Below are positions 43,371-60,758 of a DNA stretch of 64,000 nucleotides, one piece after another. Source of the stretch: a virus; IMG/VR virus record IMGVR_UViG_3300034105_003151, positions 64,001 to 128,000 of that record, one strand, 5' to 3'. The position numbers were made by a program, and so were the translations under genes. The stretch's first letter is position 1; each line of letters starts with the position of its first letter. The notes under the pieces were generated by a model that searched no databases, was not told the origin of the DNA, and saw only the letters and a list, made by a program, of their open reading frames with translations.

Positions 43371-43416
43371 CACCCCGCCCGATTCGTCATAAGTCTTTAC
43401 GCAGTAAGGGTTTAGG
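43371..43416 (-). repeat. Box-linker repeat, half copy 1 (reversed)
   Basis: Reverse strand CCTAAACCCTT-actgcgt-AAAGACTTATG then acgaatcGGGCGGGG. Confidence 0.8.
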
Positions 43417-43581
43417 TCGAGTGTTGACGCAAGTGGTGTGCCGTGTGTGGATGAGGAAAAAAAGATTGTGGTTTGGTATGGAAAATTATTTTGAGATTTT
43501 CTAGATTTTTCTCTTGACGCTGTCGATAAAAATGGTATAATAGAAGCACAAGAGAAAACGAAGGATAGCGGAGAGAAGATC

Positions 43582-43797
43582 ATGAAGAACTACTTTGGCA
43601 AGGCGATTGCCCCTAACGCTGACGTTCAGCGACACAACGAACAGATCGCTCACCTGCGTGAACAACTTGCTAATGCAGAAACTAACAATGATGGGAGTCG
43701 TTGTGCCAAGATGGAAATCGAAGCCTATCAAAACTTCCTTCGTATCGCTCTGGAAAGCAAGGCCAACGTTGCCTCTACCATGTTCAAGAGGAAGTGA
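43582..43797 (+). CDS. Early hypothetical protein
   Basis: TTGACG-16-TATAAT promoter and GGAG RBS. Confidence 0.7.
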   Translation: MKNYFGKAIAPNADVQRHNEQIAHLREQLANAETNNDGSRCAKMEIEAYQNFLRIALESKANVASTMFKRK

Positions 43798-43890
43798 GAA
43801 ACCTTACGATTTTGTAAGGAAACTTTCTCATTGACAATCCCTTTCCTAGACGATAAAATACAAGCACAAGAGAACACAAAGGAAAAAGAA

Positions 43891-44055
43891 ATGACTACAC
43901 TCTATCGGGTTGAATTGCATTCGGAAGGCTCTACGGTCTATCTTCTCACGAATAAGGGTTGGGCTGATATCGTCCATTTCAAGGAAAATGCCGAATATCG
44001 TGCCAACGCTTGGGTGAAGAATCAAGAGCGACTTGACCGAATGGACAATGGCTGA
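43891..44055 (+). CDS. Early hypothetical protein
   Basis: AAGGA RBS; own promoter. Confidence 0.65.
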   Translation: MTTLYRVELHSEGSTVYLLTNKGWADIVHFKENAEYRANAWVKNQERLDRMDNG

Positions 44056-44138
44056 ACCTTACGGAATTGTAAGGAAAGAAAGCTGTTGACATCCCCACAC
44101 AAAGACGATAAGATACTAGGACACAAAGGAAAAAGACA

Positions 44139-44312
44139 ATGAAGACTTTCTATATGTATGAGGCTGTTGGCAACGAGTACCGATATTGGGGTACGTTGTT
44201 TGCCGACAACTGGGTTGATGCTAGGGCTACAGCGGTTAGCCTTTGGGGTATCTCCTTTGGCAACATTGTTGCTGCTAGTACTCGCCTTCCCTTCTCTATG
44301 GTTACGGAGTGA
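44139..44312 (+). CDS. Early hypothetical protein (57 aa; not in the ORF track)
   Basis: MKTFYMYEAVGNEYRYWG...; AAGGA RBS. Confidence 0.6.
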   Translation: MKTFYMYEAVGNEYRYWGTLFADNWVDARATAVSLWGISFGNIVAASTRLPFSMVTE

Positions 44313-44316
44313 ACAG

Positions 44317-44505
44317 GTGAATAGGTTTGATGGTTACGATACGATAGAGTTGGGTAAGAGGCTTGTGCAGTTCCAGGCTGCTCTGGAGAAGTGTACGCCT
44401 GAACAACCTAACGCTCGTACATATATCAGAGAGATGATTCGTGCTATCGCCCGTGAACTACTGTATAGGTATCGTCAAGAGACTGAGCTACTGTACAGTA
44501 AGTGA
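44317..44505 (+). CDS. Hypothetical protein, paralog of 46425-46607
   Basis: YDTIELG.RLVQFQ...ARELLYRYR. Confidence 0.7.
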   Translation: MNRFDGYDTIELGKRLVQFQAALEKCTPEQPNARTYIREMIRAIARELLYRYRQETELLYSK

Positions 44506-44539
44506 TCATATGTACACTCATAAGCACCTAAGACCTTGA

Positions 44540-44621
44540 CGTAAAGCCTTACTGCATAAGGACTTGCGACAAGGCGGGCGGGCCGCATTTGACGTAAACC
44601 CTTGTGGCGTATAGACTTACG
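44540..44621 (+). repeat. 82-bp box-linker-box repeat, copy 2
   Basis: cgtaaagcctt-7-aaggacttgcg, 24-bp GC linker, cgtaaaccctt-7-atagacttacg. Confidence 0.92.
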
Positions 44622-44775
44622 ACTGTACTATCTAAATTACGCTACTAGAGCCCTGCTTGGCACGGTATTTGCACATCGAAAATATTTTGGATTTTCTTGG
44701 ATTTTTCTCTTGCAAGAGGTCGATAGAGTATGTATAATGCACTCACAAGAGAAACGAAGGAAAAAGGAAAAGAAA

Positions 44776-44952
44776 ATGCGAGACATCAAAGTTGGCGAGC
44801 GGGTGGTTTTGGTGGAATCCGATTGGCTGTATGATGACGGTCAAGAGCCGCGTGGTGTGGTCGTTCGAGATTTGGGTCAAGGTGGATTTGTGATCCTGTG
44901 GGATGATGGTGAAGAGGGATCGGTTTCGGAAGAACAACTGGCTCACGAATAA
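44776..44952 (+). CDS. Small SH3/KOW-like protein
   Basis: IKVGERVV...GVVV...ILWDDG. Confidence 0.6.
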   Translation: MRDIKVGERVVLVESDWLYDDGQEPRGVVVRDLGQGGFVILWDDGEEGSVSEEQLAHE

Positions 44953-45034
44953 AAAAGAAAAAAGGCTATTGACAGCGGTGAAAAAAGTCGATAAAATACT
45001 AGAACAAGAGAACGAAGAACAAAGGAAAAAGAAA

Positions 45035-45175
45035 ATGTACGCTGTCAAGAATGTCGATTGCAAGTGGGTTGTGGTGGCTGGCAAGGTTGAGTTGGCCTCT
45101 TTCGCCACGGAGAATGAGGCTAACCGCTATGCCGATTATATGGATCGGATGGATCGTCGGGACAACGGTCGATAA
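45035..45175 (+). CDS. Early hypothetical protein
   Basis: AAGGA RBS; F.TE.EA motif; DRMD..DNG C-terminus like 43891-44055. Confidence 0.6.
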   Translation: MYAVKNVDCKWVVVAGKVELASFATENEANRYADYMDRMDRRDNGR

Positions 45176-45252
45176 TTCAAAAAAGCTGTTGACAGATTCG
45201 GATTCGGACGATAAAATCCTAGCAGATCGATAACCCCAAAAGGATTCTGAAA

Positions 45253-45435
45253 ATGGACAACTTCACGGGCGAGATGTTTGCCGATTTTGATGTCTATCAA
45301 GCCAGAATGGAGAATGAAGCCATGCCTTATGAGGATTGCGAAACTTATGACCCCATTATGGGGGGTGATGAGGATTGGACCGAAACGGACGATGATTTTG
45401 CCGCCGATTATTACGGCGAAGAGGAGTTTGCCTAA
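45253..45435 (+). CDS. Highly acidic small protein
   Basis: Asp/Glu-rich, no Lys; own promoter. Confidence 0.65.
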   Translation: MDNFTGEMFADFDVYQARMENEAMPYEDCETYDPIMGGDEDWTETDDDFAADYYGEEEFA

Positions 45436-45448
45436 AAGGGCAACTTGA

Positions 45449-45501
45449 CCTAAACCTTTGCCTCGTAAAGACTTACGGCGAGGCGGGCGGGCCGATTTTT
45501 T
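45449..45501 (+). repeat. Box-linker repeat, half copy 3
   Basis: cctaaaccttt-7-aaagacttacg + gcgaggcgggcgggccg. Confidence 0.85.
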
Positions 45502-45672
45502 TGGCACGGTATTTGCATTTAGCAAACGGTGTGCCAATTACCTCGCCAATTTTCTTTTCTGTTTGGCATGGAAAATAATTTCAAATTTCTTGGATTTTTT
45601 TCTTGAAACTCAAGTTTGTCTCTGTATAATGTCGATAGATAAGAGAGAAACGAAACCCAAGAGGATACGATC

Positions 45673-45900
45673 ATGCGAGCCATCGAAAACGCTAACGTCA
45701 AGGAAAACACCTATTACGAAATCAGCATCGCCTCCCCTATCTGTGGTACTTATACCATACGGGGAATGTTTTTCTTCGTTGACGTTGATGCTAACAAAGT
45801 GGGAATTATTCCCGCATGGAACACCAATATCCTGCTCAACTACGATGCTGATTGGATTGTGAGTGTTGACGGTGTTGACGGAGACACGAAGGGGGATTGA
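45673..45900 (+). CDS. Early hypothetical protein
   Basis: GAGGA RBS; promoter. Confidence 0.65.
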   Translation: MRAIENANVKENTYYEISIASPICGTYTIRGMFFFVDVDANKVGIIPAWNTNILLNYDADWIVSVDGVDGDTKGD

Positions 45901-46024
45901 TATTCCCCACAAGGGGAGGAAGAAACCTTACGGAAATGTAAGGAAACTTTCTTGTTGACACTCAATTCCTACCCTGTATAATGTCGATAGATTCACAAGA
46001 GACACAAGCCCAAAGGAAAAGACC

Positions 46025-46192
46025 ATGCACCCCACAATCCCCAAGCACTTCGAAGCTCGATTTGTTCTCCAGTATGATTCTTCTTTTAATGTCTACAACG
46101 TTTATGAGAAAATGAATGGTGGGGGAGTGCAGATTATCGCAGGTTTTCCTACTTTTTCGCAAGCTGTTCGATGCATGGAACAGAATGAATGA
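46025..46192 (+). CDS. Hypothetical protein (55 aa), related to 61217-61432
   Basis: YEKMNG...IIAGFPTF.QA vs IEKWNG...IVAGFPTLEEA. Confidence 0.55.
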   Translation: MHPTIPKHFEARFVLQYDSSFNVYNVYEKMNGGGVQIIAGFPTFSQAVRCMEQNE

Positions 46193-46424
46193 AGGCGAAC
46201 CTTACGAAAATGTAAGGAAAGTTTTCTGTTGACAACCCTTCCCCTAGACGATAGAATACAAACATGACACAACAAATGCAAAACACGCTTAGTCGCCTCA
46301 CCGCTACCCACGGCTATACTCCTACCTTTGTGCAGGATTTGGGCTATGGTATTCATGTGTACAGTATCGGTGGATACTACTACAAGCTTCGCGGCGATGG
46401 TACGATTCTGTGAAAGGGAAAACT

Positions 46425-46607
46425 ATGTTTGAAAGCTACGATACTCACGAGCTTGGTTTGCGGATGGTGCAATTCCAAGAGTCTTTGGCTAAGTGTAAGC
46501 CTGAACAGGTGTTCGTCTGTTCATTCCTTCGCCAGATGATTTCCTCTATGGCTAGGGAACTGTTGTACAGGTACAGGCGAGAGACTAAACTTCTGTGCAG
46601 TAGGTGA
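46425..46607 (+). CDS. Hypothetical protein, paralog of 44317-44505
   Basis: YDTHELG.RMVQFQ...ARELLYRYR. Confidence 0.7.
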   Translation: MFESYDTHELGLRMVQFQESLAKCKPEQVFVCSFLRQMISSMARELLYRYRRETKLLCSR

Positions 46608-46621
46608 ACAAAAGTACTCGA

Positions 46622-46703
46622 CGTAAAGCCTTACCACATAAGGACTTACGACTAGGCGGGCGGGCCGCGTTTTTCGTAACTCCTTATCTGGCAACGACTT
46701 AGG
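46622..46703 (+). repeat. 82-bp repeat, copy 4
   Basis: cgtaaagcctt-7-aaggacttacg / 24 / cgtaactcctt-7-aacgacttagg. Confidence 0.92.
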
Positions 46704-46903
46704 TCAAATGCTAACGCAAACCGCGTGCCGTTCGTTTTGGCACGGAAAATGCATTTAGCAAAGAGTGTGCCATTCGTGATGAAAATTGGAAAAAGTTGTG
46801 TCAAAATCTCTTGACAAAAAAATCCAAAAAAATCTCTTGCATTCTCAAGTTGGCGTGGTATAATGTCGATATAAGAGTAAGAGACAAAGAAAGAGAGAAA
46901 AGA

Positions 46904-47056
46904 ATGTTTGAGATTGGTGACCGGGTGATTGTGGATTGCGACGTTGTGGGTCGGATTATCGGATGGAGATATGACGAAGGTAATGTGTGGGCCGTACAGA
47001 TCACCAATGGTGATATCATTGAATGTGCCGACGATTATCTCTCTCCAGCTAAGTGA
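46904..47056 (+). CDS. Small SH3/KOW-like protein
   Basis: FEIGDRVIV..VGRIIG. Confidence 0.6.
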   Translation: MFEIGDRVIVDCDVVGRIIGWRYDEGNVWAVQITNGDIIECADDYLSPAK

Positions 47057-47148
47057 TTCCAATCCTTACGATATTGTAAGGAAACTTTTCCTGTTGACAA
47101 ATCGCACAAAAGACGATAAAATAGAAACACAAGAAAGAAAAAACAAAA

Positions 47149-47475
47149 ATGAGCAAGTTGAACAGTATCACGCTTCGTAAAGATAACAGTATGATTGAGC
47201 ATTACATTCGTGAGGATGGTGTTCAAGATATCTATCGTTTCAAGAATGGTTATGGTGCTAGCGTTGTATGTTCTTGCGGTAGTTATGGTGGTAAACAGGG
47301 ATTGAAAGAGTTGGCAGTTCTTGATAAGGATGGACATATCTGTTATGATACTCCGATTACTGGTGATGTTCTTGGATGGCTGACGGATGAGCAAGTAGAA
47401 GAGTATCTGAGTCAGATTGCGAACCTTCCTACTGAAGTGAAAAAGCTCTCTACCGAAGTTAAGAGACTTACATAG
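47149..47475 (+). CDS. Conserved phage hypothetical protein
   Basis: FKNGYGASVV...SYGG..GL.ELAVL...YDTPITGDVLGWLT motif familiar from phage early genes. Confidence 0.75.
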   Translation: MSKLNSITLRKDNSMIEHYIREDGVQDIYRFKNGYGASVVCSCGSYGGKQGLKELAVLDKDGHICYDTPITGDVLGWLTDEQVEEYLSQIANLPTEVKKLSTEVKRLT

Positions 47476-47527
47476 GTTAGATTAGGACGTTTAGTAAACT
47501 ACAGTTTTTACACAGAAAGAAGAAAAG

Positions 47528-47719
47528 ATGTACAGTTTCATTTGGCTGTGTCGGATGATGCAAGAGCGAACGGAAGTCGTTCTTTTGGGTGGTGATAATA
47601 AGACCTACTATGGTACTATTAATAGTATCGTCATCGATGATGGTAGTGGTAGGAGCTGGGTTGTAACGCTTGCGTTGGTTGGTGGTGGATATAAAACTAT
47701 TCTTGTAAAGGCTGAGTAA
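47528..47719 (+). CDS. Hypothetical protein
   Basis: ORF track; TAATG coupling. Confidence 0.6.
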   Translation: MYSFIWLCRMMQERTEVVLLGGDNKTYYGTINSIVIDDGSGRSWVVTLALVGGGYKTILVKAE

Positions 47720-47982
47720 TGAACGGTTACGAACTGCTTGAACTTTTTGGCCGACAACTGCGTGAGGCTATCGAGGTTCCTAATTCTTGGCTTCCCGAAG
47801 AGTTTAGGGACGAGCGTACCGATAGTGTTACACTTGCCGATCTGGAACATAAGTGTGACATTCGTGATAGTAACAACATGACCGACTACGAATACGAAAA
47901 GGCCGAAAAGGCCAAGCGTATACTGTTGTACACTGAACAGGTGAACAGTGGTGCAGAAGAATTGACCTATCTACAAAAGTGA
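47719..47982 (+). CDS. Hypothetical protein
   Basis: ORF track; stop abuts repeat copy 5. Confidence 0.6.
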   Translation: MNGYELLELFGRQLREAIEVPNSWLPEEFRDERTDSVTLADLEHKCDIRDSNNMTDYEYEKAEKAKRILLYTEQVNSGAEELTYLQK

Positions 47983-47983
47983 T

Positions 47984-48065
47984 CGTAAGTGGTTGTTGCA
48001 TAAGGACTTACGACGAGCGGGGCGGGCCGTTTTTAACGTAAACCCTTATCACCAAAGGACTTGCG
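47984..48065 (+). repeat. 82-bp repeat, copy 5
   Basis: cgtaagtggtt-7-aaggacttacg / 24 / cgtaaaccctt-7-aaggacttgcg. Confidence 0.92.
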
Positions 48066-48247
48066 ACAAGTGTTTTAGCCAAACTACCCAGATGCCGCAC
48101 AGCAAGTCTTGTGCCAAACAGGCCCAAAATAAGGAAAAGTTTTGTCAAAATCTCTTGACAATATTTTTGGGATTTTTCTCTTGCGTTCTCAAGTGGATAT
48201 GGTATAATGTCGATATGAGAGTTAGAGACAACAAGAGAGAAAACCAA

Positions 48248-48430
48248 ATGAACATCGAAACTGACCACATCATCCGACTTCTGACCAGCCTGTTTAATGA
48301 ACGGGAAAAGGAGTCGGTCATGTCTATGGCCTACGCAAAACTGACGGTGGACATCCTGCAAATCGAAAAGATTCTCGCTCATCGTGGTGTCGATGTTGGG
48401 CAAATCTTCTCAAACCTTACGGAAATGTAA
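48248..48430 (+). CDS. Hypothetical protein
   Basis: ATG after promoter and purine-rich leader. Confidence 0.6.
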   Translation: MNIETDHIIRLLTSLFNEREKESVMSMAYAKLTVDILQIEKILAHRGVDVGQIFSNLTEM

Positions 48431-48859
48431 GGAAAGATTTCGCTTGCAATCCTCAAGACCATCGGGTAAAATGTCGATATAGAAGAAAAGAAAGAAAGAA
48501 GAAAATGAGAAAGTTTTACAAAATTTCGGATGATGGATATGATCGTTATAAAGATGATCGTGATGGATATGTTTCTGCTCAAGAACAGCTTGATAGGCAA
48601 GCTGCGTTTGCCAAAGAGATCGGTGATATACAAGCCAAGTCGTTGGCGCTGTTTTGCAAGAAGAATGGATTGAAAGACTGAATATGAGAACTGTATACGT
48701 TTACAAGTGGATTAACCACACTACTGTTTATATGGGAACCGTTAGGATTCCTAGTGATAACTTCCTCGCTCAGTTGAAGGTTATTCACGACACTTTTGGT
48801 GATGATTGTGTGTGGTACAATCGTCCGATTCTTGATCCTCTTGCTCTGAATGGTTGAAT

Positions 48860-49102
48860 ATGACTATCTCTGATTTAAATATGGATGATGTGTGCTGTGT
48901 TACCTACACGGCTCCTCATAGGTTGGTGCCTCATAGTAATTATGTTGGTACTGTTGTACGTCTTGGTAAGGCCGGTGGTGGTCCGATCCGCCCTGGATAC
49001 TCCAGCGATAGTGATGATCATTATGTTATTATCCGACTGAATGATGATACTCACCGTACTCTTTCTCAGAGTAAGGTTATCAACATCTCTCTGTGGGAGT
49101 AA
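48860..49102 (+). CDS. Hypothetical protein
   Basis: ORF track. Confidence 0.5.
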   Translation: MTISDLNMDDVCCVTYTAPHRLVPHSNYVGTVVRLGKAGGGPIRPGYSSDSDDHYVIIRLNDDTHRTLSQSKVINISLWE

Positions 49103-49118
49103 ATAAAAGAAAACTCGA

Positions 49119-49200
49119 CCTAAACCCTTGTCAGATAAGGACTTAGGGCAAAAACGGCGGGCCGCGTTCGCCGTAAACCCTTACGCGGCAACGACTTACG
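49119..49200 (+). repeat. 82-bp repeat, copy 6
   Basis: cctaaaccctt-7-aaggacttagg / 24 / cgtaaaccctt-7-aacgacttacg. Confidence 0.92.
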
Positions 49201-49409
49201 ACAAGTCATGAGGCAAACCGTGTGCTACAAAAAAATATTCTTTGGCATGGAACGTGCATTAGCAAACCCCGTGCCGAACTAGATCAAAATGACCCAAAGT
49301 TTTGTCAAAATCTCTTGACACAAATCCGAGAAGATTTTTCTTGCAAAGTGGATTTTGTCTGGTAAAATGCCGATATACAAGATAGGACACAAGGAAAAAA
49401 GGAAAGAAC

Positions 49410-49601
49410 ATGAAAACGGTCACCCTCACCATCGACACCTACAACAAGAGCTTCGCCCTCCATGCGGCTGTCAAGGGTCGGATCGATCATCTCTCAGAGT
49501 TGCTCTCTAGCAAGGGATTGAGCGGTGAAGTCAAGGACATTTTCCGCAAGGATTTGGCCGAACTTAAGGCTATGCAAAAGCAGTTGGACAACTGGGATTG
49601 A
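49410..49601 (+). CDS. Small helical hypothetical protein
   Basis: AAGGA RBS; promoter. Confidence 0.65.
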   Translation: MKTVTLTIDTYNKSFALHAAVKGRIDHLSELLSSKGLSGEVKDIFRKDLAELKAMQKQLDNWD

Positions 49602-49684
49602 ACCTAACGAAATTGCAAGCTTGACACCGCCGCGACGATTTGCTAGAATCCAATCTCACAAGAAAACTCCAAAGGAAAAAGACA

Positions 49685-50020
49685 ATGACTGATATCCAAA
49701 CCCTCTCGACTCGCAAGCTCATCCGTTACGCCAAGCGTCAAGCTCGCTCTAGCTTCCTTGGCATGGTTACGGAAAGTGAAGATAAGGAAGTCGATGGTAT
49801 TCCTGTGACGGTTCACACTGTTCGCAAGTTCAATCGGAAGGCTCTGCTGAATCCGCCCAAGGTTAAGAAGGATCGTCCCGCTGGTGATGCTAGTATCATT
49901 CGCGTCGGTAATCCCGGTTCGTCTGAGCGTCTGGATGCCTACGCTGCGTTCTACGCTGCGAATGGTTGCGTTAATAATAAGTACGATGGTAACATTTCCC
50001 CTTTTATGGACATGAATTGA
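49685..50020 (+). CDS. Basic hypothetical protein
   Basis: AAGGA RBS; promoter. Confidence 0.65.
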   Translation: MTDIQTLSTRKLIRYAKRQARSSFLGMVTESEDKEVDGIPVTVHTVRKFNRKALLNPPKVKKDRPAGDASIIRVGNPGSSERLDAYAAFYAANGCVNNKYDGNISPFMDMN

Positions 50021-50192
50021 ATATGATCAAGGTTTACATTGTGATGCAGACCAATAGTACTACTGACTATGCTGTTGGTGTGTTTCTTTCGTTGGATTCT
50101 GCCCGAAAATGTGTTGACCAATTGAAGGCTCATCCCAATAATAAGTATCTGCATTTCTGGATTGACTCTAATAACACTTTACAGGATTAACA

Positions 50193-50396: not shown

Positions 50397-50412
50397 TACG
50401 ATACGAACTTGA

Positions 50413-50494
50413 CGCAAACCCTTGCTGCGTAAGGACTTACGGCGAGGGCGGCGGGCCGCGTTTGACGCAAACCCTTTGGAGGCAACAACTTACG
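50413..50494 (+). repeat. 82-bp repeat, copy 7
   Basis: cgcaaaccctt-7-aaggacttacg / 24 / cgcaaaccctt-7-aacaacttacg. Confidence 0.92.
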
Positions 50495-52059: not shown

Positions 52060-52106
52060 CGTAAACCCGTGTGGCGTAAGCACTTACGTCAAATCGGGCG
52101 GGCCGC
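52060..52106 (+). repeat. Box-linker repeat, half copy 8
   Basis: cgtaaacccgt-7-aagcacttacg + tcaaatcgggcgggccg. Confidence 0.85.
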
Positions 52107-52208
52107 GAAAATCGTGCCAAAGAATTTTGCGATTTTGCAGAAAGATTTCTCTAGATTCTGCTTGACGGTGCCGATAAATATGGTATACTTAGAGCATCAC
52201 AAGGAGAA

Positions 52209-52953: not shown

Positions 52954-53020
52954 CAAAACGTTTTGTTGTGGTATACTTCGATAGTTGTTTGGATTTTCTT
53001 TCACAAAGGGATTTTTTAGT

Positions 53021-53452: not shown

Positions 53453-53472
53453 AAACGAGCAACGCTACTCGC

Positions 53473-53554
53473 CGTAAACCCTTTGTGCGTAAGCACTTAG
53501 GGCACGGCGGGCGGGCCGTTTTTGACGTAAGTCTTTATGCAGTAAGGGGTTGAG
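53473..53554 (+). repeat. 82-bp repeat, copy 9
   Basis: cgtaaaccctt-7-aagcacttagg / 24 / cgtaagtcttt-7-aaggggttgag. Confidence 0.9.
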
Positions 53555-54076
53555 TCGAGTTTTTTTCTAAAGGTTCGTGTTGACACTGGACGATAAGATG
53601 GTATGATTCGTAAACGGAGGCTGACCAATGAGTTACGTTTGGTGGGTGATTGTGGGATGTAGGAGAGTTGGGTATGTTGAGAGTCCTAGTGAAATTGGGG
53701 CGACTAGGGCGGCAAAAGAGAAGTTTGGTGATTCCGCCTGGGTTGAGAGGTACTCGGATATGAATGTGTGTAACTTCTAAACCCTCCTGTTTGTGCCGCT
53801 GTGCGTTAGTCAGTTAAAGACTATGGGGTTGACAGGTCGATAAAACGATGGTAGAATGGTGGAAAAGAGGATAAAATGAGAACATTTGCTCAATTTGAAC
53901 AATGGGCCAAAAGTATTGGCTACGTTGTAGAGAGGGTTGGTCGGCGTATTGAATGGTATCATAAGGATAATCATAGTATTATTGGAGTGTGTTCTACTAT
54001 CCAACAAACTATTGATGAAATCTGTGATGATATTCTAGCTTGACAAAAACGAGATCTGGTGTATAATGGAAGACAC

Positions 54077-54147
54077 GGGCTTGTAGTACAATGGGAGTAC
54101 ATTCGGCTTGCATCCGAAAAATGAGGGTTCGATTCCCTTCCTGTCCA
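54077..54147 (+). tRNA. tRNA-Ala(TGC)
   Basis: Cloverleaf, G3:U70; acceptor stem has mismatches. Confidence 0.75.
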
Positions 54148-54152
54148 CTTAT

Positions 54153-54223
54153 GCGAGTGTAATACAATGGTAGTATGTCTGCCTTCCAAGCAGAACATGG
54201 GAGTTCGATTCCCCCTACTCGCA
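54153..54223 (+). tRNA. tRNA-Gly(TCC)
   Basis: TCTGC-CTTCCAA-GCAGA. Confidence 0.85.
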
Positions 54224-54235
54224 CTTGATGATTTT

Positions 54236-54306
54236 AGGTGAATAGTATAATGGTAGTACCGCCGTCTCCAAAGCGGCTCGCGTGGGTTCGATTCCTACTT
54301 CACCTG
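54236..54306 (+). tRNA. tRNA-Trp(CCA)
   Basis: GCCGT-CTCCAAA-GCGGC. Confidence 0.85.
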
Positions 54307-54316
54307 CTTTAGTTAT

Positions 54317-54389
54317 GGTCCGTTGGCCTAGCGGTTAAGGTATCTCGTTTACACCGAGAGGATCGGGGGTTCGAATCCCTCACGGACTA
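54317..54389 (+). tRNA. tRNA-Val(TAC)
   Basis: TCTCG-TTTACAC-CGAGA. Confidence 0.85.
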
Positions 54390-54435
54390 CTTAGAAATGG
54401 TGTATAATTTTGGTATAACAAGAAAGATTATACCA

Positions 54436-54780
54436 ATGACAAAATACACAGAAAAAACTTGTAAGAAACATGGGATTTGTAGATTTGTATTAGAAGGAAG
54501 TGGGTACTACAGGTGTACAAAATGTAGATCTACTGCTGTACATAATAGGCGTAAAAAAGTAAAACTACTATTAGTACAGTACAAAGGTGGTAAGTGTGAA
54601 CAATGCGGCTATAATAAGTGTGTAGCAGCATTAGAGTTTCATCACTTGGACCCTACACAAAAAGACTTTGGTATTGGTGCTAATGGTCATACTTTGGCAC
54701 TAGCAAAATTGAAACAAGAGGTAGATAAATGTATTTTGGTTTGTTCAAATTGTCATAGAGAGATACATGATGCGGGATAG
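54436..54780 (+). CDS. HNH endonuclease inserted in the tRNA array
   Basis: KGGKCEQCGY...LEFHHLDP...KCILVCSNCHREIH. Confidence 0.9.
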   Translation: MTKYTEKTCKKHGICRFVLEGSGYYRCTKCRSTAVHNRRKKVKLLLVQYKGGKCEQCGYNKCVAALEFHHLDPTQKDFGIGANGHTLALAKLKQEVDKCILVCSNCHREIHDAG

Positions 54781-54842
54781 CATAACGGTAATGCGCCAAC
54801 CTGTTAAGTTGTCAGATATAGGTTCGATTCCTATTCCCGTAG
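54771..54842 (+). tRNA. tRNA-Asn(GTT)
   Basis: CAAC-CTGTTAA-GTTG; overlaps the HNH stop codon. Confidence 0.8.
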
Positions 54843-54852
54843 TTTTTAATTT

Positions 54853-54926
54853 GGGCTTGTAGCATAACTGGATAATGCCCCCGACTGTCCATCGGGTGAT
54901 TGCGGGTTCAAATCCCGTCAGGCCCG
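54853..54926 (+). tRNA. tRNA-Asp(GTC)
   Basis: CCCGA-CTGTCCA-TCGGG. Confidence 0.85.
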
Positions 54927-54932
54927 CTTTTT

Positions 54933-55004
54933 GTTGCTCTGGCTGAATGGCAAGGCGAGGGACTGCAAATCCCTTTTTTGTGGGTTCGAATCCCACGGGC
55001 AATT
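54933..55004 (+). tRNA. tRNA-Cys(GCA)
   Basis: AGGGA-CTGCAAA-TCCCT. Confidence 0.85.
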
Positions 55005-55020
55005 CTCAAAGGATAGAATA

Positions 55021-55176
55021 ATGGGAATTAAAACCAATCAATCTATAAAAGCTATCAAAGATTTATGCTTCATGGGCTGCACAACCCGCTGGGCTAAGAA
55101 TCATTCTAATCGCATTTCTAGACGCGATGCTAAGAACGAAATTCGTAAGGAAATACAGTATAAGGTTGAAAATTAA
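55021..55176 (+). CDS. Small basic hypothetical protein
   Basis: AGGA RBS; WAK..SNR..RR.AK. Confidence 0.55.
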   Translation: MGIKTNQSIKAIKDLCFMGCTTRWAKNHSNRISRRDAKNEIRKEIQYKVEN

Positions 55177-55179
55177 AGT

Positions 55180-55225
55180 CGGCCCGCCGGTTTTGACGTA
55201 ACTCCTTATGCAGCAACAACTTACC
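55180..55225 (-). repeat. Box-linker repeat, half copy 10 (reversed)
   Basis: Reverse strand ggtaagttgtt-7-aaggagttacg + tcaaaaccggcgggccg. Confidence 0.8.
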
Positions 55226-55297
55226 TCAAGCAAATAATTTCTCATGCTATGGGCTTGACATGGCCGATACCTATGGTAGAATGAACGAGTAAGACAT

Positions 55298-55397
55298 GGT
55301 GAAGGTAGCGTAGTGGTAGCGTGAGAGAAGTTCCGAACTGCGATAGCAGAGTAGGCAAGCAAATGCTCTTGTGATGGTTCGATTCCATCCCTTCACC
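55298..55397 (+). ncRNA. tRNA-like RNA with an expanded anticodon region
   Basis: GGTGAAGG/CCTTCACC acceptor, D-loop AGTGGTA, T-arm GATGG-TTCGATT-CCATC; ~38-nt insert in place of the anticodon loop. Confidence 0.65.
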
Positions 55398-55429
55398 CCT
55401 TGACAAACACGCAAAGCGTGATACAATTC

Positions 55430-55573
55430 TCGTGGACGAATGCGGTTAGATTGGAGTAGCCTAATACTGATGAACTGTGGCAGGGGATAGAACCCTGGTA
55501 GTCATAGTCTTACTGTTTGCTACGCAGAGTCAGTACTTAGCCAATCTACGGGGAGGTCGCGTCCCCGCCACGA
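55430..55573 (+). ncRNA. Structured ncRNA candidate A
   Basis: Own TTGACA-16-TACAAT promoter; nested helices tcgtgg/ccacga, tagattgg/ccaatcta, tactga/tcagta, cgggga/tccccg. Confidence 0.55.
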
Positions 55574-55696
55574 TTCATACACCCTGCGGGTTCGTAGGTT
55601 GTCCTCAAGGGGGGAGGATGTAAAAGACAGTGGGATAGTACTATAGCTCTATTGTTCCATACCCCCACCATACAACTCGTTAGAAAAGGAAAAGAT

Positions 55697-55897
55697 ATGA
55701 AAAGATTGACAATAAACGAAAAACAGGCGGCAAACCTAGTGCTTTGGGTGCAATGGACAAAAGAAGATATGGAGAAGATAGAACATCGATATCGATATAA
55801 TTGTAGTATTGGTGCTAGAGATGGTGATCCAAACGCATTCAAAGAAATGATTGATTCTGTTCTGGAATTGGCTGGAAGCCTTGACATTCTCGCGTAG
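55697..55897 (+). CDS. Hypothetical protein
   Basis: AAGGA RBS. Confidence 0.55.
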   Translation: MKRLTINEKQAANLVLWVQWTKEDMEKIEHRYRYNCSIGARDGDPNAFKEMIDSVLELAGSLDILA

Positions 55898-56104
55898 TGT
55901 GGTAGAATAGCAGAAAGAAAACAATGCTTATCCAAACCAAAAATCCCGATCTGTATAGGCTATGGATCGAATACTATGATGCTTTTCGTCCCGACATGAG
56001 AGGATATGAAAAGAGAACCTACGCCTTTTTTAATAGCGAAAAGGGCATTTATCCGGGTTGACTCTCACGCAAAGCGTGGTAGACTTGTAAAAAAGGAGCC
56101 AAAG

Positions 56105-56323
56105 ATGAAGATGAAGATTAAGCGTAGAGGAGAAGAGGAGCAGAGAGTTTCATTTGAGTCTCTTGAACCGGGACAGCTTTTTGAATACGCTAATAGGCTA
56201 ATGATCAAAATGGGTCCATATGAAGATGATGATGCTTTTGATATTGATAACAATATCACATTAATCATTTATCGACTCACTCAAGTACTGCCCCTTAACG
56301 CCACACTAACCATAGAGGAATAA
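56105..56323 (+). CDS. Small beta-barrel family protein, copy 3
   Basis: VSFESLEPGQLFEY...IK...V.P.NATL.I. Confidence 0.65.
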   Translation: MKMKIKRRGEEEQRVSFESLEPGQLFEYANRLMIKMGPYEDDDAFDIDNNITLIIYRLTQVLPLNATLTIEE

Positions 56324-56324
56324 G

Positions 56325-56552
56325 ATGAAGATTCAAGAGAATGAGAAACCCAAGATGGTTCCTTTTCGTGATATTGAACGTGGAGGTGTTTTTCGATATG
56401 CAAATGACATTATCATGAAGACTGATATCTATACGGTTGCAATAGGAACTCTTAAAGCGATCCGTTTGACAGATGGAGCGGGATTCGTATGTGTCTTTGA
56501 TGATGAAAAAACTCTTGTTGAGCCTCTTGACACTACTCTGGTGATTAACTAG
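56325..56552 (+). CDS. Small beta-barrel family protein, copy 4
   Basis: VPFRDIERGGVFRY...MK...AIRL...VEPLDTTLVI. Confidence 0.65.
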   Translation: MKIQENEKPKMVPFRDIERGGVFRYANDIIMKTDIYTVAIGTLKAIRLTDGAGFVCVFDDEKTLVEPLDTTLVIN

Positions 56553-56563
56553 GAGAATTGAAC

Positions 56564-56782
56564 ATGAAGATTACCAAAAAAAAGCGGGATTGGGTTAATT
56601 TCAAAGATATCCCGGTAGGTCAAACCTTCCGTGATGTGGATGAAGAGCCTTGTCTCAGAATAGAAACGACTGATTCAGGACATAACGCCATTTCCCTCTC
56701 AATTAATCGTGCTTATGAGTTTAGGGAAAATAATCTGGTGACTCCTATTAATGCAGAGTTGATTGTTGATGATCATCAATAA
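56564..56782 (+). CDS. Small beta-barrel family protein, copy 5
   Basis: VNFKDIPVGQTFR...NAISL...VTPINAELIV. Confidence 0.65.
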   Translation: MKITKKKRDWVNFKDIPVGQTFRDVDEEPCLRIETTDSGHNAISLSINRAYEFRENNLVTPINAELIVDDHQ

Positions 56783-56949
56783 GTACCGGGAGTAAGTATG
56801 ACTTACAAGTGGCTTGACGAAGCGGCAAAAGAAATCCTTGATAAGTTCACTATTGATCCAAATAGCAAGGTGGAGAATGGACTGACCGCGAAAGAAAGAA
56901 TGATTAGTTATATCCTAGCAGCTATTGACAATATCGAAAGGGAGTTAGA

Positions 56950-57210
56950 ATGACTATCGGTCAACTAATCGAAAAAATTGGTAATCTTCAACAGTACAAA
57001 CCTTGTATCAATCATGATTCAGGGTTTCCTTGGGCGGGTATGGAAGAATCTACTAAGGATGGATTTATTTTCGCGGCTGATCTCAAAAACATTCTAGAGG
57101 AGTTTCTTACAGGCTTGACTCTGGAAGCGATTGAAACCGTAATCAACTCTCCTAATAAGAATAAGCCTAAGATTGAACCTAAACTCTTGCCCGGTAAGGA
57201 CTTAGGGTGA
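56950..57210 (+). CDS. Hypothetical protein; 3' end runs into repeat copy 11
   Basis: GGAG RBS. Confidence 0.55.
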   Translation: MTIGQLIEKIGNLQQYKPCINHDSGFPWAGMEESTKDGFIFAADLKNILEEFLTGLTLEAIETVINSPNKNKPKIEPKLLPGKDLG

Positions 57211-57259
57211 ACCGGGCCAGCCCGATGTGTCGTAACTCCTTACGCAGCAACGACTTGCA
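57178..57259 (+). repeat. 82-bp repeat, copy 11 (divergent linker)
   Basis: cctaaactctt-7-aaggacttagg / 24 / cgtaactcctt-7-aacgacttgca. Confidence 0.85.
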
Positions 57260-57382
57260 GCAAGTTGTCAGAACTGACACTTATCCCCCCAAAACAGCCA
57301 TAAATTGCCAGAAGTGACACTCAAGATTTCGCTCTTGACAAGACGATATTGGGGTGTAGAATGATAGAACAAGGAGAGGATT

Positions 57383-57775
57383 ATGTATCGTGTTCGTTTT
57401 CATCTTCAATCTGGCAAAAACTACAAATGCTGGCAGATTTGTCAGATGAATGGTAGTCGGCGTGTCAAAGAAATCTACTACGACCCATCAAAGGTTCAGC
57501 TAGAACTAGTTGAGTGCAAGTTGGTCAACAAGGTTAAGATTGCTCGCAGGGTTCATGCCGAAGGTGTCAGGGATGTGGCAGGATGGGTTGAGTGCTTGGA
57601 AGTGAAAATCTCTGAAAATCCAGTTGACGGTCTTGAGAGATTATTTTACAACCCAATTCTCGATCCAAATTGGCGTAGAGATGGAGACAATGGGGAGTTT
57701 GTGTGGGACGATAGCGAATACAAAACACTGGTTACACAGGGCAAACGGGTTTATATTCTTGAAGAAAGGGTTTGA
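57383..57775 (+). CDS. Hypothetical protein
   Basis: RVRFHL..G.NYK.WQI...YNP; strong RBS. Confidence 0.7.
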   Translation: MYRVRFHLQSGKNYKCWQICQMNGSRRVKEIYYDPSKVQLELVECKLVNKVKIARRVHAEGVRDVAGWVECLEVKISENPVDGLERLFYNPILDPNWRRDGDNGEFVWDDSEYKTLVTQGKRVYILEERV

Positions 57776-57776
57776 A

Positions 57777-58169
57777 ATGATTAGTATTGAAATGACCGTT
57801 GCAGAGATTCTCGATCTTTATCGCAATTGCGATGTGAATTACAAGCTTAAGGAGCGTCTTGTTGCTGCTCTGGAGAAAGCTGTTGCTGTTAAGGGTATGG
57901 GTAATAACTATACATTCACTTTTTACTCACTGCGAAATCCAGAAAACTTCATTAACTGCATTAAGATCATCCGTCTTCACACAAAGATGCATCTTAGAGA
58001 CGCTAAAGAGTTTATGGATGTGGTTCGTGGGACGTTGTCTTATGATAATGTCTATCGTGGAGGCACTTCAAAGAATCTCACTGGTTATAGTGAAGATATC
58101 TGTTCTAAAATTGTGAGCGACCTTCGTGATATTGGCGAATGGGATATTAATTATACTCCATCTACTTGA
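57777..58169 (+). CDS. Protein with a ribosomal L7/L12 C-terminal-like motif
   Basis: INCIKIIRLHTKMHLRDAKEFMD resembles bL12 CTD I.VIK.VR..TGLGLKEAK..V. Confidence 0.5.
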   Translation: MISIEMTVAEILDLYRNCDVNYKLKERLVAALEKAVAVKGMGNNYTFTFYSLRNPENFINCIKIIRLHTKMHLRDAKEFMDVVRGTLSYDNVYRGGTSKNLTGYSEDICSKIVSDLRDIGEWDINYTPST

Positions 58170-58177
58170 TCGCTCTT

Positions 58178-58259
58178 CCTAAGTCCTTTCCCCGCAAGGG
58201 GTTAGGGCCGGGGCGGCGGGCCGCGTTTGACGTAACTCCTTATCCCACAACCTCTTACG
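58178..58259 (+). repeat. 82-bp repeat, copy 12
   Basis: cctaagtcctt-7-aaggggttagg / 24 / cgtaactcctt-7-aacctcttacg. Confidence 0.9.
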
Positions 58260-58459
58260 TCAACTACTCACAGCAAATCCCATGCCAAAGATTTTTTCAA
58301 GAAGAGGTGTTGACATGGACGATATAAGAGGTAGAATACAACAGTACGAGCAAGGAAACAGGGACGAGCAAAAAACAAAATCGACCAACTGCCCTTGACA
58401 AGTACACTTTGCGTTGTATAATTTTGGAAATGGTTCTAACACTTTTGAGGAATATAAAA

Positions 58460-58762
58460 ATGGATAAGATCAACGTTTGCGAGTTCAAGGTTAGTGTTTC
58501 GGGTGTTTCTGAGTCTTTCGACTATGCCGATGTGGTTGATACGATCAAGGCCGCTCTTGTCGAGGCACTGCCGGATAGCTACGGTGTTTATGCCCGTGCA
58601 GAGCAGATTCGTGAGATGACGCACCAGGGTTGGCTGAATTGCCGTGCCCGTGTGTACAACGTGACTGCTGTGGAAGCCGGTGACGGTAAGAGTGCCAGCA
58701 AGGTTATCAAGCTGACAGGAAAGAAGGTCAAGGAAGAGGAGACTGCTACGGCTACCGCCTGA
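58460..58762 (+). CDS. Hypothetical protein
   Basis: GAGGA RBS; promoter. Confidence 0.65.
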   Translation: MDKINVCEFKVSVSGVSESFDYADVVDTIKAALVEALPDSYGVYARAEQIREMTHQGWLNCRARVYNVTAVEAGDGKSASKVIKLTGKKVKEEETATATA

Positions 58763-58798
58763 CTTGACAAACTCGACCCAGCGAGTATAAACAGCTTT

Positions 58799-59010
58799 TA
58801 GGCTGGGTGCGGTGGAACAGTAACCATCCTGTTCCGCGTAAGGATTATCGGCGTGGGATTCGCCGGTCTAGTAGAGTCTAACCAACTGATAAGACAGTGG
58901 TACTCGTTGAAGCGGCTTGCTACTAGTATTATAATGTGGTAAAGTAGTCGCACCACAAAACCGTTAGCCCTCACGGGACGCCGTGGGGGCTTGCGGCATT
59001 AGTAGACCTA
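58799..59010 (+). ncRNA. Structured ncRNA candidate B (~210 nt)
   Basis: Promoter TTGACA-16-TATAAA; helices ggtgcg/cgcacc, gtggaacag/ctgttccgc, cggcg/cgccg, ctagtag/ctactag, gccctcacgg/ccgtgggggc. Confidence 0.6.
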
Positions 59011-59027
59011 ATAAACTGGAGAAAAAA

Positions 59028-59186
59028 ATGGCAAAGTCAAAGAGTTATGATCCTAGTACAAAGTTGACAAAGTGTACTTGTAAGCACGCTTTTCAGGATG
59101 CTGAGTATGGCGAAGATATTCGTCTCATGAATAAGAAAAAGGCCGGTGGTTTTTGCTGCACTGTTTGTGGTAAAGACAAGGTATAA
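59028..59186 (+). CDS. Small Zn-binding protein
   Basis: CTCKH.FQD..YG...CTVCG; GGAG RBS. Confidence 0.65.
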   Translation: MAKSKSYDPSTKLTKCTCKHAFQDAEYGEDIRLMNKKKAGGFCCTVCGKDKV

Positions 59187-59326
59187 TCAATAATAATATG
59201 ACGATTAAAGTCGAACGTAATCGTTGAAAGTCGGAACAAAAAAGCTAAATAAAGACTAGTGAGTTAGCCTCCTCCTAGTCTGGTACACCTAATCTACCCA
59301 ATTAGCAAACAAAATCCGACATAAGT

Positions 59327-59408
59327 CACAAGTCCTTATACAGCAAGTACTTAGGGCTGGGCCGGCGGGCCGCGTTCGCCGTAAGTCCTTATCTACCAAC
59401 ACTTTACG
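59327..59408 (+). repeat. 82-bp repeat, copy 13
   Basis: cacaagtcctt-7-aagtacttagg / 24 / cgtaagtcctt-7-aacactttacg. Confidence 0.9.
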
Positions 59409-59524
59409 AGTTGTTTCGCCTTCTGCAACAACTGCAAATATCATGCCAAAGATTTTTCAAAGATTTACCCCTTGACTTGCCGATAAGATATTGTAGAATG
59501 ACAGGACACAAGGGAGAATGAAAA

Positions 59525-60244
59525 ATGAAGATTGCTGATGGTAACGATAAGCTCGGCAAGAATTGTATTGTGGTGTCGCGTCCGGTTGGCGATACTTGTC
59601 CAATCGAAGGATCAGACCGTCCGTGTGCCTTTTTTAATAACGGATGCTATGCGGAAGCTACTGAAAATCAGTATAAGAATGCCCGCACTGCTGGTTTTGC
59701 CAATGTGATTACAAAAAAGAATCTTATTCGCTCTATGATTCTTGACGCTATTAAGCGTAAGAAAAGCATTCGTTGGCATGAGCGTGGCGATTTCTTTATT
59801 GACAATAAACTCGATACCGATTATGTTGACAATATAACCTGGGCTTGTGAGAGCGTGTTGGCCGATGGTATTAAATTGCCTAAGATGTGGTTTTATACCC
59901 ATATCTATGACCCTGCTCTGGTCGCGTTAGGTAAGTTTATGAGTGCTTATGCTAGTGTTCATAATGATGATGATATGAATGCTGCTAAGGCTGTTGGTTT
60001 TACTAAGTTTGCGTGGTGCGATAGTGATAAGAAAATTGCCCCTAAGCGTCCTAAGAGTAAGGCTAAGGCTGATGCTTGGCGTAAAGAGTTGCCAAAGTTT
60101 GTTATCCTGAACAACGAGCGTTTTGTTACTTGCCCTGAGATTCGCAAGGGACGAACGTTTGTTACTTGTAGTGGTAGTAAGGATAGTCAAGCGTGTGATA
60201 TGTGTATCAATGGTCGTGCTAGTGTCTTTTTCCCCTGTCATTGA
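59525..60244 (+). CDS. Gp88-like Cys-rich (radical-SAM-like) phage protein
   Basis: GN.KLG, TCP...C....CYA, IRWHERGDF, WFYT, CP...TC...C..C. Confidence 0.7.
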   Translation: MKIADGNDKLGKNCIVVSRPVGDTCPIEGSDRPCAFFNNGCYAEATENQYKNARTAGFANVITKKNLIRSMILDAIKRKKSIRWHERGDFFIDNKLDTDYVDNITWACESVLADGIKLPKMWFYTHIYDPALVALGKFMSAYASVHNDDDMNAAKAVGFTKFAWCDSDKKIAPKRPKSKAKADAWRKELPKFVILNNERFVTCPEIRKGRTFVTCSGSKDSQACDMCINGRASVFFPCH

Positions 60245-60253
60245 GGATTTACA

Positions 60254-60433
60254 ATGAATAAGTGGATTAAAATTGATGATGAAAAGATTCTGCACTTGTG
60301 GCAGTGTGCGGATTGTAATGAAACTCGCTATGTTTATCCTTGGTTCTATTCAGAAATGGGCGAACCCTGTTGTGAAGGATGTGATGGAGATATGGAATAC
60401 ATTCATACAGAGATGGAGGTTGACAATGGCTAA
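60254..60433 (+). CDS. Small Zn-ribbon protein (59 aa; not in the ORF track)
   Basis: WQCADC...PCCEGCDGDM; GAGGA RBS. Confidence 0.6.
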   Translation: MNKWIKIDDEKILHLWQCADCNETRYVYPWFYSEMGEPCCEGCDGDMEYIHTEMEVDNG

Positions 60434-60671
60434 GTACTATGTTAACTGTGGTTCGGTCAAGGTAATATATGATATGGGACCAAAAGGAAAGCATATGGAC
60501 GCGGCAGTTAGGGCTTTTCTAGATACTAATAAGGATGATAAACTGGACAACTATATGATTGTAAGCGAGCAAGGATTCCGCGATCAATTTGATATGATGC
60601 CCGTACATGATATGGCATACAGTATTACAAAAGTACAAAGAGTGGCAGAGAAAAGACAACGAAAGAAATAA
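60426..60671 (+). CDS. Hypothetical protein
   Basis: GGAGG RBS; MAKYYV..G...VSEQGF. Confidence 0.6.
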   Translation: MAKYYVNCGSVKVIYDMGPKGKHMDAAVRAFLDTNKDDKLDNYMIVSEQGFRDQFDMMPVHDMAYSITKVQRVAEKRQRKK

Positions 60672-60676
60672 CTCGC

Positions 60677-60758
60677 CGTAAACCCTTGCCACTAAACGAC
60701 TTAGGGCGAGGGCGGCGGGCCGGGCTCCTCCTAAACCCTTATGCAGCAAGTACTTAGG
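60677..60758 (+). repeat. 82-bp repeat, copy 14
   Basis: cgtaaaccctt-7-aacgacttagg / 24 / cctaaaccctt-7-aagtacttagg. Confidence 0.9.

Follow-up and report, generated by a model that had tools for sequence, protein, structure and literature searches.

An 82-bp element recurs in the early region of an uncultured lake phage. It consists of two dyad-symmetric boxes (box 1 and box 2) held at a fixed distance around a GC-rich centre. It was studied in a window of 64,000 nucleotides, bases 64001–128000 of the 151,300-bp IMG/VR virus record IMGVR_UViG_3300034105_003151, a genome whose completeness is 100% according to CheckV. The element is a real family of rigid double palindromes, previously undescribed as far as our searches show (a literature search with the box sequences returned unrelated primers only). 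It looks like a site where a DNA-binding protein docks, and not like an RNA hairpin or a recombination site, and we give a probability of about one half to the proposal that it is an upstream operator, or an enhancer-like site, for a putative multimeric protein. Its anatomy, rigid geometry, polarity, helical phasing and retention at orthologous genes, and the absence of base-pair covariation, are observed directly.

The box, C(G/C)TAA-N4-TT-N7-AA-N4-TTA(C/G)G, matches the window 21 times with at most one mismatch, compared to 0.07 matches expected, and none of 100 shuffled sequences reaches this number. When two mismatches are allowed there are 24 true boxes, which is the number counted in an initial annotation of the same DNA, and one further match (at 53609) that is likely due to chance. 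All the boxes lie between 43.3 and 60.8 kb of the window, outside the structural part, as annotated, and they form ten full and four partial elements. Every full element is composed of box 1, a 24-bp linker and box 2, and the ten starts originally given are correct. Two further full elements stand just past the end of the window (genome 128638 and 130136). The rest of the 151-kb genome (about 125 kb) contains no comparable element, and the first 107 kb give a single match with two mismatches, attributable to chance.

The family is present in dozens of IMG/VR contigs of 20–244 kb, from related uncultured lake phages, which together carry hundreds of copies. The contigs were retrieved by scanning IMG/VR with a pattern that combines core and box, followed by box scans of the fetched loci; a set of 249 unique double elements and, later, an independent set of 180 were compiled. 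In the pooled related loci, adjacent boxes are spaced by exactly 53 bp in 182 of 187 pairs, so that the fixed spacing claimed for the window holds for the family, and the core spacer of the box measures 7 bp in 527 cases out of 531. The 7-bp cores themselves vary from copy to copy and carry almost no information (about 0.1–0.5 bits), in agreement with the first description of them as all different. The palindrome continues outwards: the pooled half-site consensus is TTGACGTAAGTCCTTA, which is 16 bp long and occurs four times per element. Within a box, the conserved patches (positions of about 2, 11, 19.5 and 28.5) are some 9 bp apart, and would therefore lie roughly on one face of the helix.

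The four half-sites differ in their preferences: AAACCC for the left half of box 1, AAGTCC for the right half of box 1 and the left half of box 2, and AAGTCG or AAAGTG for the right half of box 2. The element thus has a polarity. The GC-rich centre (the GGCGGGCCG core) is found in either orientation, flipped exactly about the midpoint of the element, even among orthologous copies. It is G-rich on the sense strand in 58–74% of copies, and the boxes retain their polarity regardless, which contradicts the initial view of the core as directional. Four half elements had also been described, two of them (43388 and 55197) as reversed. They are partial elements, but since the core flips while the boxes keep their polarity, these two are forward elements, in which the core is flipped and box 1 is degenerate or missing. 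The orientation of the coding strand, judged from the length of the open reading frames (ORFs), was uninformative, the genes being tiny. The elements are the following (window coordinates unless stated otherwise).

43364..43416, + strand: partial element, heading the array; box 1 absent, C-rich core of the linker flipped, box 2 at 43388–43416; promoter at 43514
44540..44621, + strand: full element; box 1, 24-bp linker, box 2
45449..45501, + strand: partial element; box 1 and linker, box 2 replaced by a TGGCACGGTATTTGCA / AGCAAACGGTGTGCCA palindrome
46622..46703, + strand: full element
47984..48065, + strand: full element; box 1 directly adjoins the stop codon of the upstream ORF
49119..49200, + strand: full element
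50413..50494, + strand: full element; followed 24 bp further on by a consensus TTGACA-16-TATAAT promoter
52060..52112, + strand: partial element; box 1 and linker only
53473..53554, + strand: full element; box 2 with two mismatches; promoter starts 26 bp after it
55144..55225, + strand: element in which box 1 is degenerate, the GC core flipped and box 2 (55197–55225) intact; promoter starts 30 bp after it
57178..57259, + strand: full element; divergent GC core; the upstream ORF ends within the element
58178..58259, + strand: full element; antisense sigma54-like motif 13 bp after it
59327..59408, + strand: full element; upstream of the GP88/DUF7227-like gene
60677..60758, + strand: full element, the last in the window
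genome 128638–128719 and 130136–130217: two full elements past the window, which flank the DUF932 gene

The position of the element relative to genes is also regular. The stop codon of the upstream ORF is most often at or inside box 1, either as a TGA directly before the box or as a TAA or TAG within it. An UP-like A/T stretch and a near-consensus sigma70-type promoter (TTGACA/TGnTAGAAT) come within 300 bp after 213 of 239 elements; the location between a stop codon and a promoter, first noticed in the window, holds for the family. The orientation of the boxes matches the side of the nearest promoter in 96% of the cases (177/184).

The distance between the element and the −10 hexamer is multimodal, with peaks at 41, 51, 62, 72 and 85. 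A Rayleigh R of 0.44 was obtained for 133 sequence clusters at a period of about 11 bp, a value that none of 2000 uniform null sets reaches. The phasing was replicated on the 180 further elements (83 clusters), with R = 0.40 at a period of 11.5 bp and, again, none of 2000 null sets at this level. The period is the same as the helical repeat of 11–11.5 bp seen in DNA-looping experiments in vivo.

The element is retained upstream of orthologous genes whose proteins are only 49–71% identical: it is found 79–105 bp before the ATG of 22 of the 23 GP88/DUF7227-like orthologues and of 11 of the 12 DUF932 orthologues. In the alignments of these orthologues the positions of the half-sites are kept, while the 7-bp cores, the orientation of the GC core and the upstream gene (a tRNA in some phages, unrelated ORFs in others) change. 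Judged by this pattern, the element forms a unit with the promoter and gene that follow it.

The palindromes show no sign of selection for pairing. Among the 249 unique copies, Watson–Crick pairing at the variable arm positions is at or below the expectation under independence, whether within a box, across boxes or in a central stem (e.g., 0.26 observed versus 0.38 expected at positions 6:24). Mutual information is found mostly between adjacent columns, i.e., it reflects alternative half-site types, and the only associated pair is 2:28 of box 1 (Fisher p about 1e-5). The G·U-type preferences point to the minus strand in box 1 and to the plus strand in box 2. The absence of compensatory changes in the arms means that hairpins of RNA or of single-stranded DNA are not supported. 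If anything, perfect complementarity seems to be avoided, which would fit a double-stranded protein site under pressure against cruciform extrusion.

These results bear on the possibility that the element works at the RNA level, its hairpins acting as terminators, as RNase III processing sites (as between the early genes of T7) or as 3′ stabilisers. The upstream ORFs run into the element, which must therefore be transcribed, one copy folds well (z of −3.9 on the + strand, and −6.3 on the − strand, where A·C mismatches turn into G·U pairs), and positions 2 and 28 of box 1 are associated, but we consider this reading very improbable. Folding is inconsistent among copies, the others doing no better than shuffled sequence (z of −0.05 to −1.9). 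No plausible scheme gives an excess of pairing, and the strand preferred for wobble pairs is opposite in box 1 and box 2. The linker can form a GC hairpin of at most 4 bp followed by 3–5 T, which falls short of an intrinsic terminator; the U-tract is not conserved and disappears when the core is flipped. The exact lengths of loop and linker are atypical of RNA hairpins, and Rfam 15 (at the gathering score) has no family on the element, tRNAs and a Pistol ribozyme being its only matches in the window. The RNA reading would also leave the helical phasing unexplained.

We propose instead that the 82-bp element is a double-stranded DNA site belonging to the downstream promoter, with four 16-bp half-sites arranged as two dyad-symmetric boxes 53 bp apart around the GC-rich centre. 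The likely ligand would be a multimeric sequence-specific protein, e.g., a dimer of dimers. A strong early promoter of the sigma70 type, with its UP element, lies a whole number of turns of about 11 bp away from the element, so that RNA polymerase would meet the bound complex on one side of the helix. The complex could modulate the promoter, either activating it or shutting it off at a given time. Binding by a protein, the identity of that protein and the sign of its effect are what we infer from these features. The initial annotation had suggested a protein–DNA system of fixed geometry, and this is the best-supported reading in view of the spacing, the independently drawn half-sites, the lack of compensation, the phasing at about 11 bp and the retention at orthologues. 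Secondarily, the repeats act as cassette boundaries for homologous recombination.

A candidate for the binding protein is encoded by the first rightward gene before the array.

43050..43277, + strand: candidate binder gene; 75-aa three-helix helix-turn-helix (HTH) protein with a C-terminal GRP/AT-hook-like tail

This HTH/AT-hook protein is a lead only. Its AlphaFold (AF2) model is a three-helix HTH with a confidence score (pLDDT) of about 90 over residues 11–50, and the RGRP tail of a homologue passes the Pfam AT_hook cut-off. The gene is kept at the same junction in three of five relatives, with 47–51% identity (51–57% over the matched segments). Across 80 IMG/VR loci with this gene at their centre, 477 boxes are found downstream, compared to 2 upstream. 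A Pfam search of 70 small ORFs of the right arm detected no classical regulator. Some related contigs that have the HTH gene and no CGTAA boxes contain another palindrome, TGGCAGAAA, GC-rich 6–8 bp, TTTCTGCCA (at 10782, 11437, 12235 and 16592 in L183 and at 18329 in L200), which may be a lineage-specific replacement of the element downstream of the HTH gene.

Several observations weigh against an operator bound by this protein or by another one. Only about 14 of the roughly 40 strong + strand promoters at 43–64 kb are preceded by an element, so that about two thirds do without, and orthologous promoters occur both with and without it, which makes it dispensable for the promoter as such. In this genome alone, the 13 spacings are not visibly phased. 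The phasing is a family-wide tendency, calculated on copies that are related and against a uniform null, and part of its peaks could stem from a small number of ancestral promoter modules. The operator reading assigns no role to the conserved GC core. As to the candidate binder, the folds nearest to the HTH model (the N-terminal HTH of TerS, Myb domains and the DNA-binding domain of GcrA) have no significant E-value, and 14 of the 60 HTH loci with enough downstream sequence have no boxes. Conversely, two relatives with boxes, one complete with terminal repeats (G005) and one 95% complete (G004), gave no match to the HTH gene at E ≤ 0.01.

Among the alternatives to the operator, the strongest, although unlikely, is a boundary or insulator: the bound protein (a host nucleoid protein or DNA gyrase) would be a transcription roadblock or a supercoil barrier between dense strong promoters, and not a regulator of the next promoter. 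The BIME-2/REP repeats of E. coli (bacterial interspersed mosaic elements, made of repetitive extragenic palindromes) are reported to bind DNA gyrase. The phage element begins so close to the upstream ORF, at its stop codon or inside it, that a separate terminator has no space, and few canonical terminators are predicted despite the presence of about 40 strong promoters. A symmetric enzyme or complex would also tolerate the flip of the core, which occurs without loss in an element of pseudo-twofold symmetry about its GC centre. However, the element moves with the downstream promoter and gene and not with the upstream gene, a pure barrier predicts no phasing at about 11 bp, and there is no topoisomerase domain among the Pfam matches listed (the best 25 families per list). 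It is far less probable that the boxes are a sigma54 enhancer, where a host enhancer-binding protein would activate the adjacent −24/−12 motifs. The motif TGGCAYG-N4-TTGCW occurs 11 times in the genome, compared to about one expected, and every time beside an element; in the relatives it stands at fixed offsets of +89 to +96 and points into the element. Upstream activator sites of the NtrC or DctD type are pairs of dyad sites separated by whole turns, which the pair of boxes resembles. Yet only 46 of 239 elements (about 19%) have the motif within 90 bp, mostly in antisense, and its offsets are half a turn apart. The forward motifs are unphased and follow just 11 of the 239 elements, which does not amount to a same-direction promoter 70–150 bp downstream of the boxes, and Sigma54_activat (PF00158) has no match in the phage. 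A larger role would combine several of these: the element would nucleate an undescribed twofold-symmetric nucleoprotein complex that organises the whole early region in a large clade of freshwater phages, as phased regulator of promoters of the host RNA polymerase, docking partner for the sigma54-type sites on both sides and boundary that makes early cassettes exchangeable. We hold this to be unlikely. Phased sites for an IHF/HU-like bender, another option of the initial annotation, find little support: the half-site TTGACGTAAGTCCTTA shares only AA-N4-TTR with the IHF consensus WATCAANNNNTTR. The WAT part of this consensus is absent, and a T replaces its conserved C in box 1 (88% of copies) and box 2 (98%). 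The phage genome itself has no match to HU/IHF (PF00216), although such a protein could be supplied by the host. Nor does the idea of loading or decoy sites on first-injected DNA agree with a relative that has direct terminal repeats, since its array is internal (57.8–74.4 kb of 199.9 kb).

The remaining alternatives concern the cassettes that the elements delimit, which were analysed by cutting the loci at the elements and clustering the pieces. Gene order is largely conserved among the syntenic relatives, and the changes consist of the insertion, loss, replacement and tandem duplication of whole cassettes. Individual alignments stop at boxes, and 16% of the internal ends of homology blocks are at most 30 bp from a box, compared to 6.7% for random positions; mosaic breakpoints are therefore 2.4-fold enriched at the boxes. 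Site-specific recombination, by an integron-like or Xer-like system, would make the cassettes units of change, and the 11-7-11 layout of arms and spacer recalls the core sites of tyrosine recombinases, whose geometry is found in 527 of 531 boxes. The GC core, moreover, is inverted among orthologous elements, as though flipped between flanking inverted arms. This is nonetheless the least probable of all the readings. The 151-kb genome has no match to tyrosine recombinases (PF00589) or serine recombinases (PF00239), with positive controls, nor to the Y1 transposase (PF01797) or a TnpB-type domain. The 7-bp cores differ among all copies, which would block strand exchange between sites, and there is no covariation of the attC hairpin type. 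Logan contigs of four other lake metagenomes gave only short unitigs and no well-supported box junction; the few joints seen are weak (sides of 20–36 nt), and one between 48016 and 50457 lies within the box/linker repeats and is probably an assembly effect. The part of the recombinase-site proposal that stands is thus the cassettes as units of change. The homologous recombination genes of the phage (RecA, RuvB and endonuclease VII) can explain the gain, loss and duplication of cassettes as well as the enrichment of breakpoints. With this kit, and with no tyrosine or serine recombinase in the genome, the behaviour of the cassettes recalls the shuffling by promoter early stem-loops (PeSLs) of T4-type phages (PMC4122927) rather than an integron. 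The best reading is that the element is also a seam where whole cassettes are gained, lost and duplicated by homologous recombination. One could go further and regard it as mainly a recombinogenic or selfish intergenic repeat, analogous to T4-type PeSLs, REP/BIME or miniature inverted-repeat transposable elements, which would be kept by spreading and cassette shuffling without a dedicated binder. Its presence/absence polymorphism, with clean edges, at orthologous promoters would agree with this, as would the changes of whole cassettes in otherwise syntenic relatives, the homology-block ends and the recombination genes just mentioned, to which a PD-(D/E)XK nuclease can be added; comparable shuffling is documented for PeSLs (PMC2839356, PMC4122927). 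But homologous recombination has no need of strict 16-bp half-sites, a 53-bp spacing and a 7-bp core, all maintained in copies that have diverged and number in the hundreds. Moreover, the elements occupy one block only, are co-oriented with promoters (96%), phased and kept at orthologues of 49–71% identity, and no transposase of the families searched was found in the genome. We therefore hold a mainly selfish repeat to be unlikely, behind the insulator.

The operator reading can be compared with known systems. The L5/Bxb1 stoperators, the C1 operators of P1 and the KorB sites of RK2 are single sites of 13–17 bp, with a known repressor, which exert global control. The element resembles them in its many copies over a region, in short gaps near stops and promoters, and in its orientation bias, and differs from them by its four half-sites in a fixed 82-bp frame with a conserved GC centre and by its putative binder. 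Other upstream sites serve activators, such as the Fis sites with the UP element at rrnB P1, the class I sites of CRP, those of phi29 p4 and the K-boxes of ComK. ComK binds paired boxes as a dimer of dimers, and p4 activates or over-stabilises RNA polymerase. The common features are dyad sites upstream of the UP element and the −35, at integral helical turns; in sequence the element is unlike all of them, and the 53-bp spacing, the GC core and a binding that is only predicted set the element apart.

The REP/BIME sequences of enterobacteria are dispersed genome-wide, linked to RAYT (REP-associated tyrosine) transposases, and reported to bind gyrase or IHF. Like the element, they are paired imperfect palindromes with a linker, whose arms contain conserved mismatches and which are located just behind stop codons. 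The element, in contrast, is found in a single block and has a fixed polarity relative to promoters, in a genome that shows neither the Y1 transposase (PF01797) expected of a RAYT nor dispersed copies. The PeSL of T4-type phages is a terminator stem-loop with a promoter, which mediates cassette shuffling (PMC2839356, PMC4122927). PeSLs and the element are both short composite intergenic repeats by strong early promoters, confined to plastic early regions (PMC2839356, PMC4122927), and both are cassette boundaries for insertion, deletion and replacement by homologous recombination; the elements do coincide with the limits of insertions and deletions in the plastic region. Unlike a PeSL, the element is an 82-bp double palindrome with a GC core, without selection for pairing or a U-tract, i.e., not a stem-loop, and the promoter is a separate one, downstream of the element and in helical phase with it. 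It is carried by large siphovirus-like lake phages, which are not T4-like.

The genome of the phage has three parts. The genes at 0–66.6 kb are oriented rightward and devoted to replication and nucleotide metabolism (DnaE, DnaB, SSB, RecA, RuvB, RNR, PhoH, ligase and endonuclease VII). Those at 66.6–106.8 kb are oriented leftward and form the structural module, with TerL, the portal and a tape measure of 2601 aa (window 11663–19468, − strand), the size of which implies an unusually long tail. From 107 kb on the genes are again rightward, with very small ORFs and 26 tRNA genes. The first gene of the leftward (late) block (window 42222–42851, − strand, 209 aa) has a weak match to Sigma70_r2 (E 0.09) and another ORF, within 0–34 kb, matches Sigma70_r4 (E 3e-9), so the phage probably encodes its own sigma-like factors.

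DNA of this phage was found again in lake-water metagenomes of 17 studies; no RNA data set is listed among the public runs that contain it. Searches by megablast and blastn against 50,697 records of cultured phages gave no match, and the closest cultured TerL, from Bacillus phages, is 25% identical. Five whole relatives have a TerL that is 54–75% identical and contain 9–25 boxes each. In the four relatives for which box positions are listed, the boxes form one block of 7–17 kb, which is 4–8 kb away from TerL in the three where TerL was found. A single block is also the rule when this genome and the five relatives are taken together, with block sizes given as 17–23 kb. A scan of prokaryote genomes gave five matches, all in freshwater bins of metagenome-assembled genomes. 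The bins belong to unrelated phyla and the matches are probably mis-binned phage contigs, so they were discarded and no host is assigned.

The region at 43–64 kb of the window is rich in other motifs. Its 21 kb contain about 40 + strand promoters close to the TTGACA/TATAAT consensus, an extreme density. Many of them have a TG extension and UP-like A/T tracts, and nearly every small ORF has a promoter of its own. There and in related loci, a bipartite motif, C[TC][AC]AAG-N17/18-CGATA(A/T), is conserved and overlaps sigma70-type promoters. Its CGATA takes one of two registers 21 bp apart, 13 bp upstream or 8 bp downstream of the start of the −10; the motif may be an operator, or mark a second class of promoters that a phage sigma factor would read. 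A mini-palindrome, CCTTACG-N4-TGTAAGG followed by AAACTTT (window 43803, 44058, 45927, 46201, 47065 and 48416), starts at a fixed 28–29 bp before the −35 of seven intra-cassette promoters. Its arms resemble those of the box in reverse order, and it is a more PeSL-like unit of the region. A scan with a position weight matrix found no extra half-sites inside promoters. Other roles of the element itself were considered and dropped: a three-frame stop, because all three frames are closed in only 58% of elements, and, after comparison by eye with the column frequencies, a sigma70 promoter in the box (TTGACG plus a −10) and a DnaA box in box 2.

The sigma54-type −24/−12 motifs are at window 44658, 45502, 46738 and 49243 on the + strand, and at window 45521, 46757, 48101, 49261, 58272 and 59433 and genome 128732 on the − strand. 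Some of them pair head-to-head as palindromes. In the relatives, antisense copies lie +89 to +96 after the element and forward copies 20–50 bp before it, and thus point into the element from both sides. Two RNA features are also present. A Pistol self-cleaving ribozyme (RF02679, 55.2 bits for a cut-off of 34.5) is located between two early ORFs (window 58771–58843, + strand). A 99-nt tRNA-like sequence (window 55299–55397, + strand), with 41.3 bits in the Rfam tRNA model and no ARAGORN call, directly follows an element and has a promoter of its own at 55255.

The most conserved genes of the array are the GP88/DUF7227-like gene (window 59525–60244) and the DUF932 gene (genome 129092–130060). 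The leading regions of conjugative plasmids commonly contain DUF932, a hint that host-takeover or anti-defence functions may be encoded in the cassettes. If a protein does bind, the element would provide a handle on the control of early genes in an abundant uncultured clade of lake phages of 95–244 kb: the geometry of the site is fixed, its natural variants number in the hundreds, and its distances to the promoter form a natural series in steps of about 11 bp. In that case it would be a new architecture among the few dispersed operator systems of phages, and a regulatory repeat that doubles as a seam for swapping host-takeover or anti-defence cassettes. The element is also a simple signature by which the clade and its early region can be found in metagenomes.

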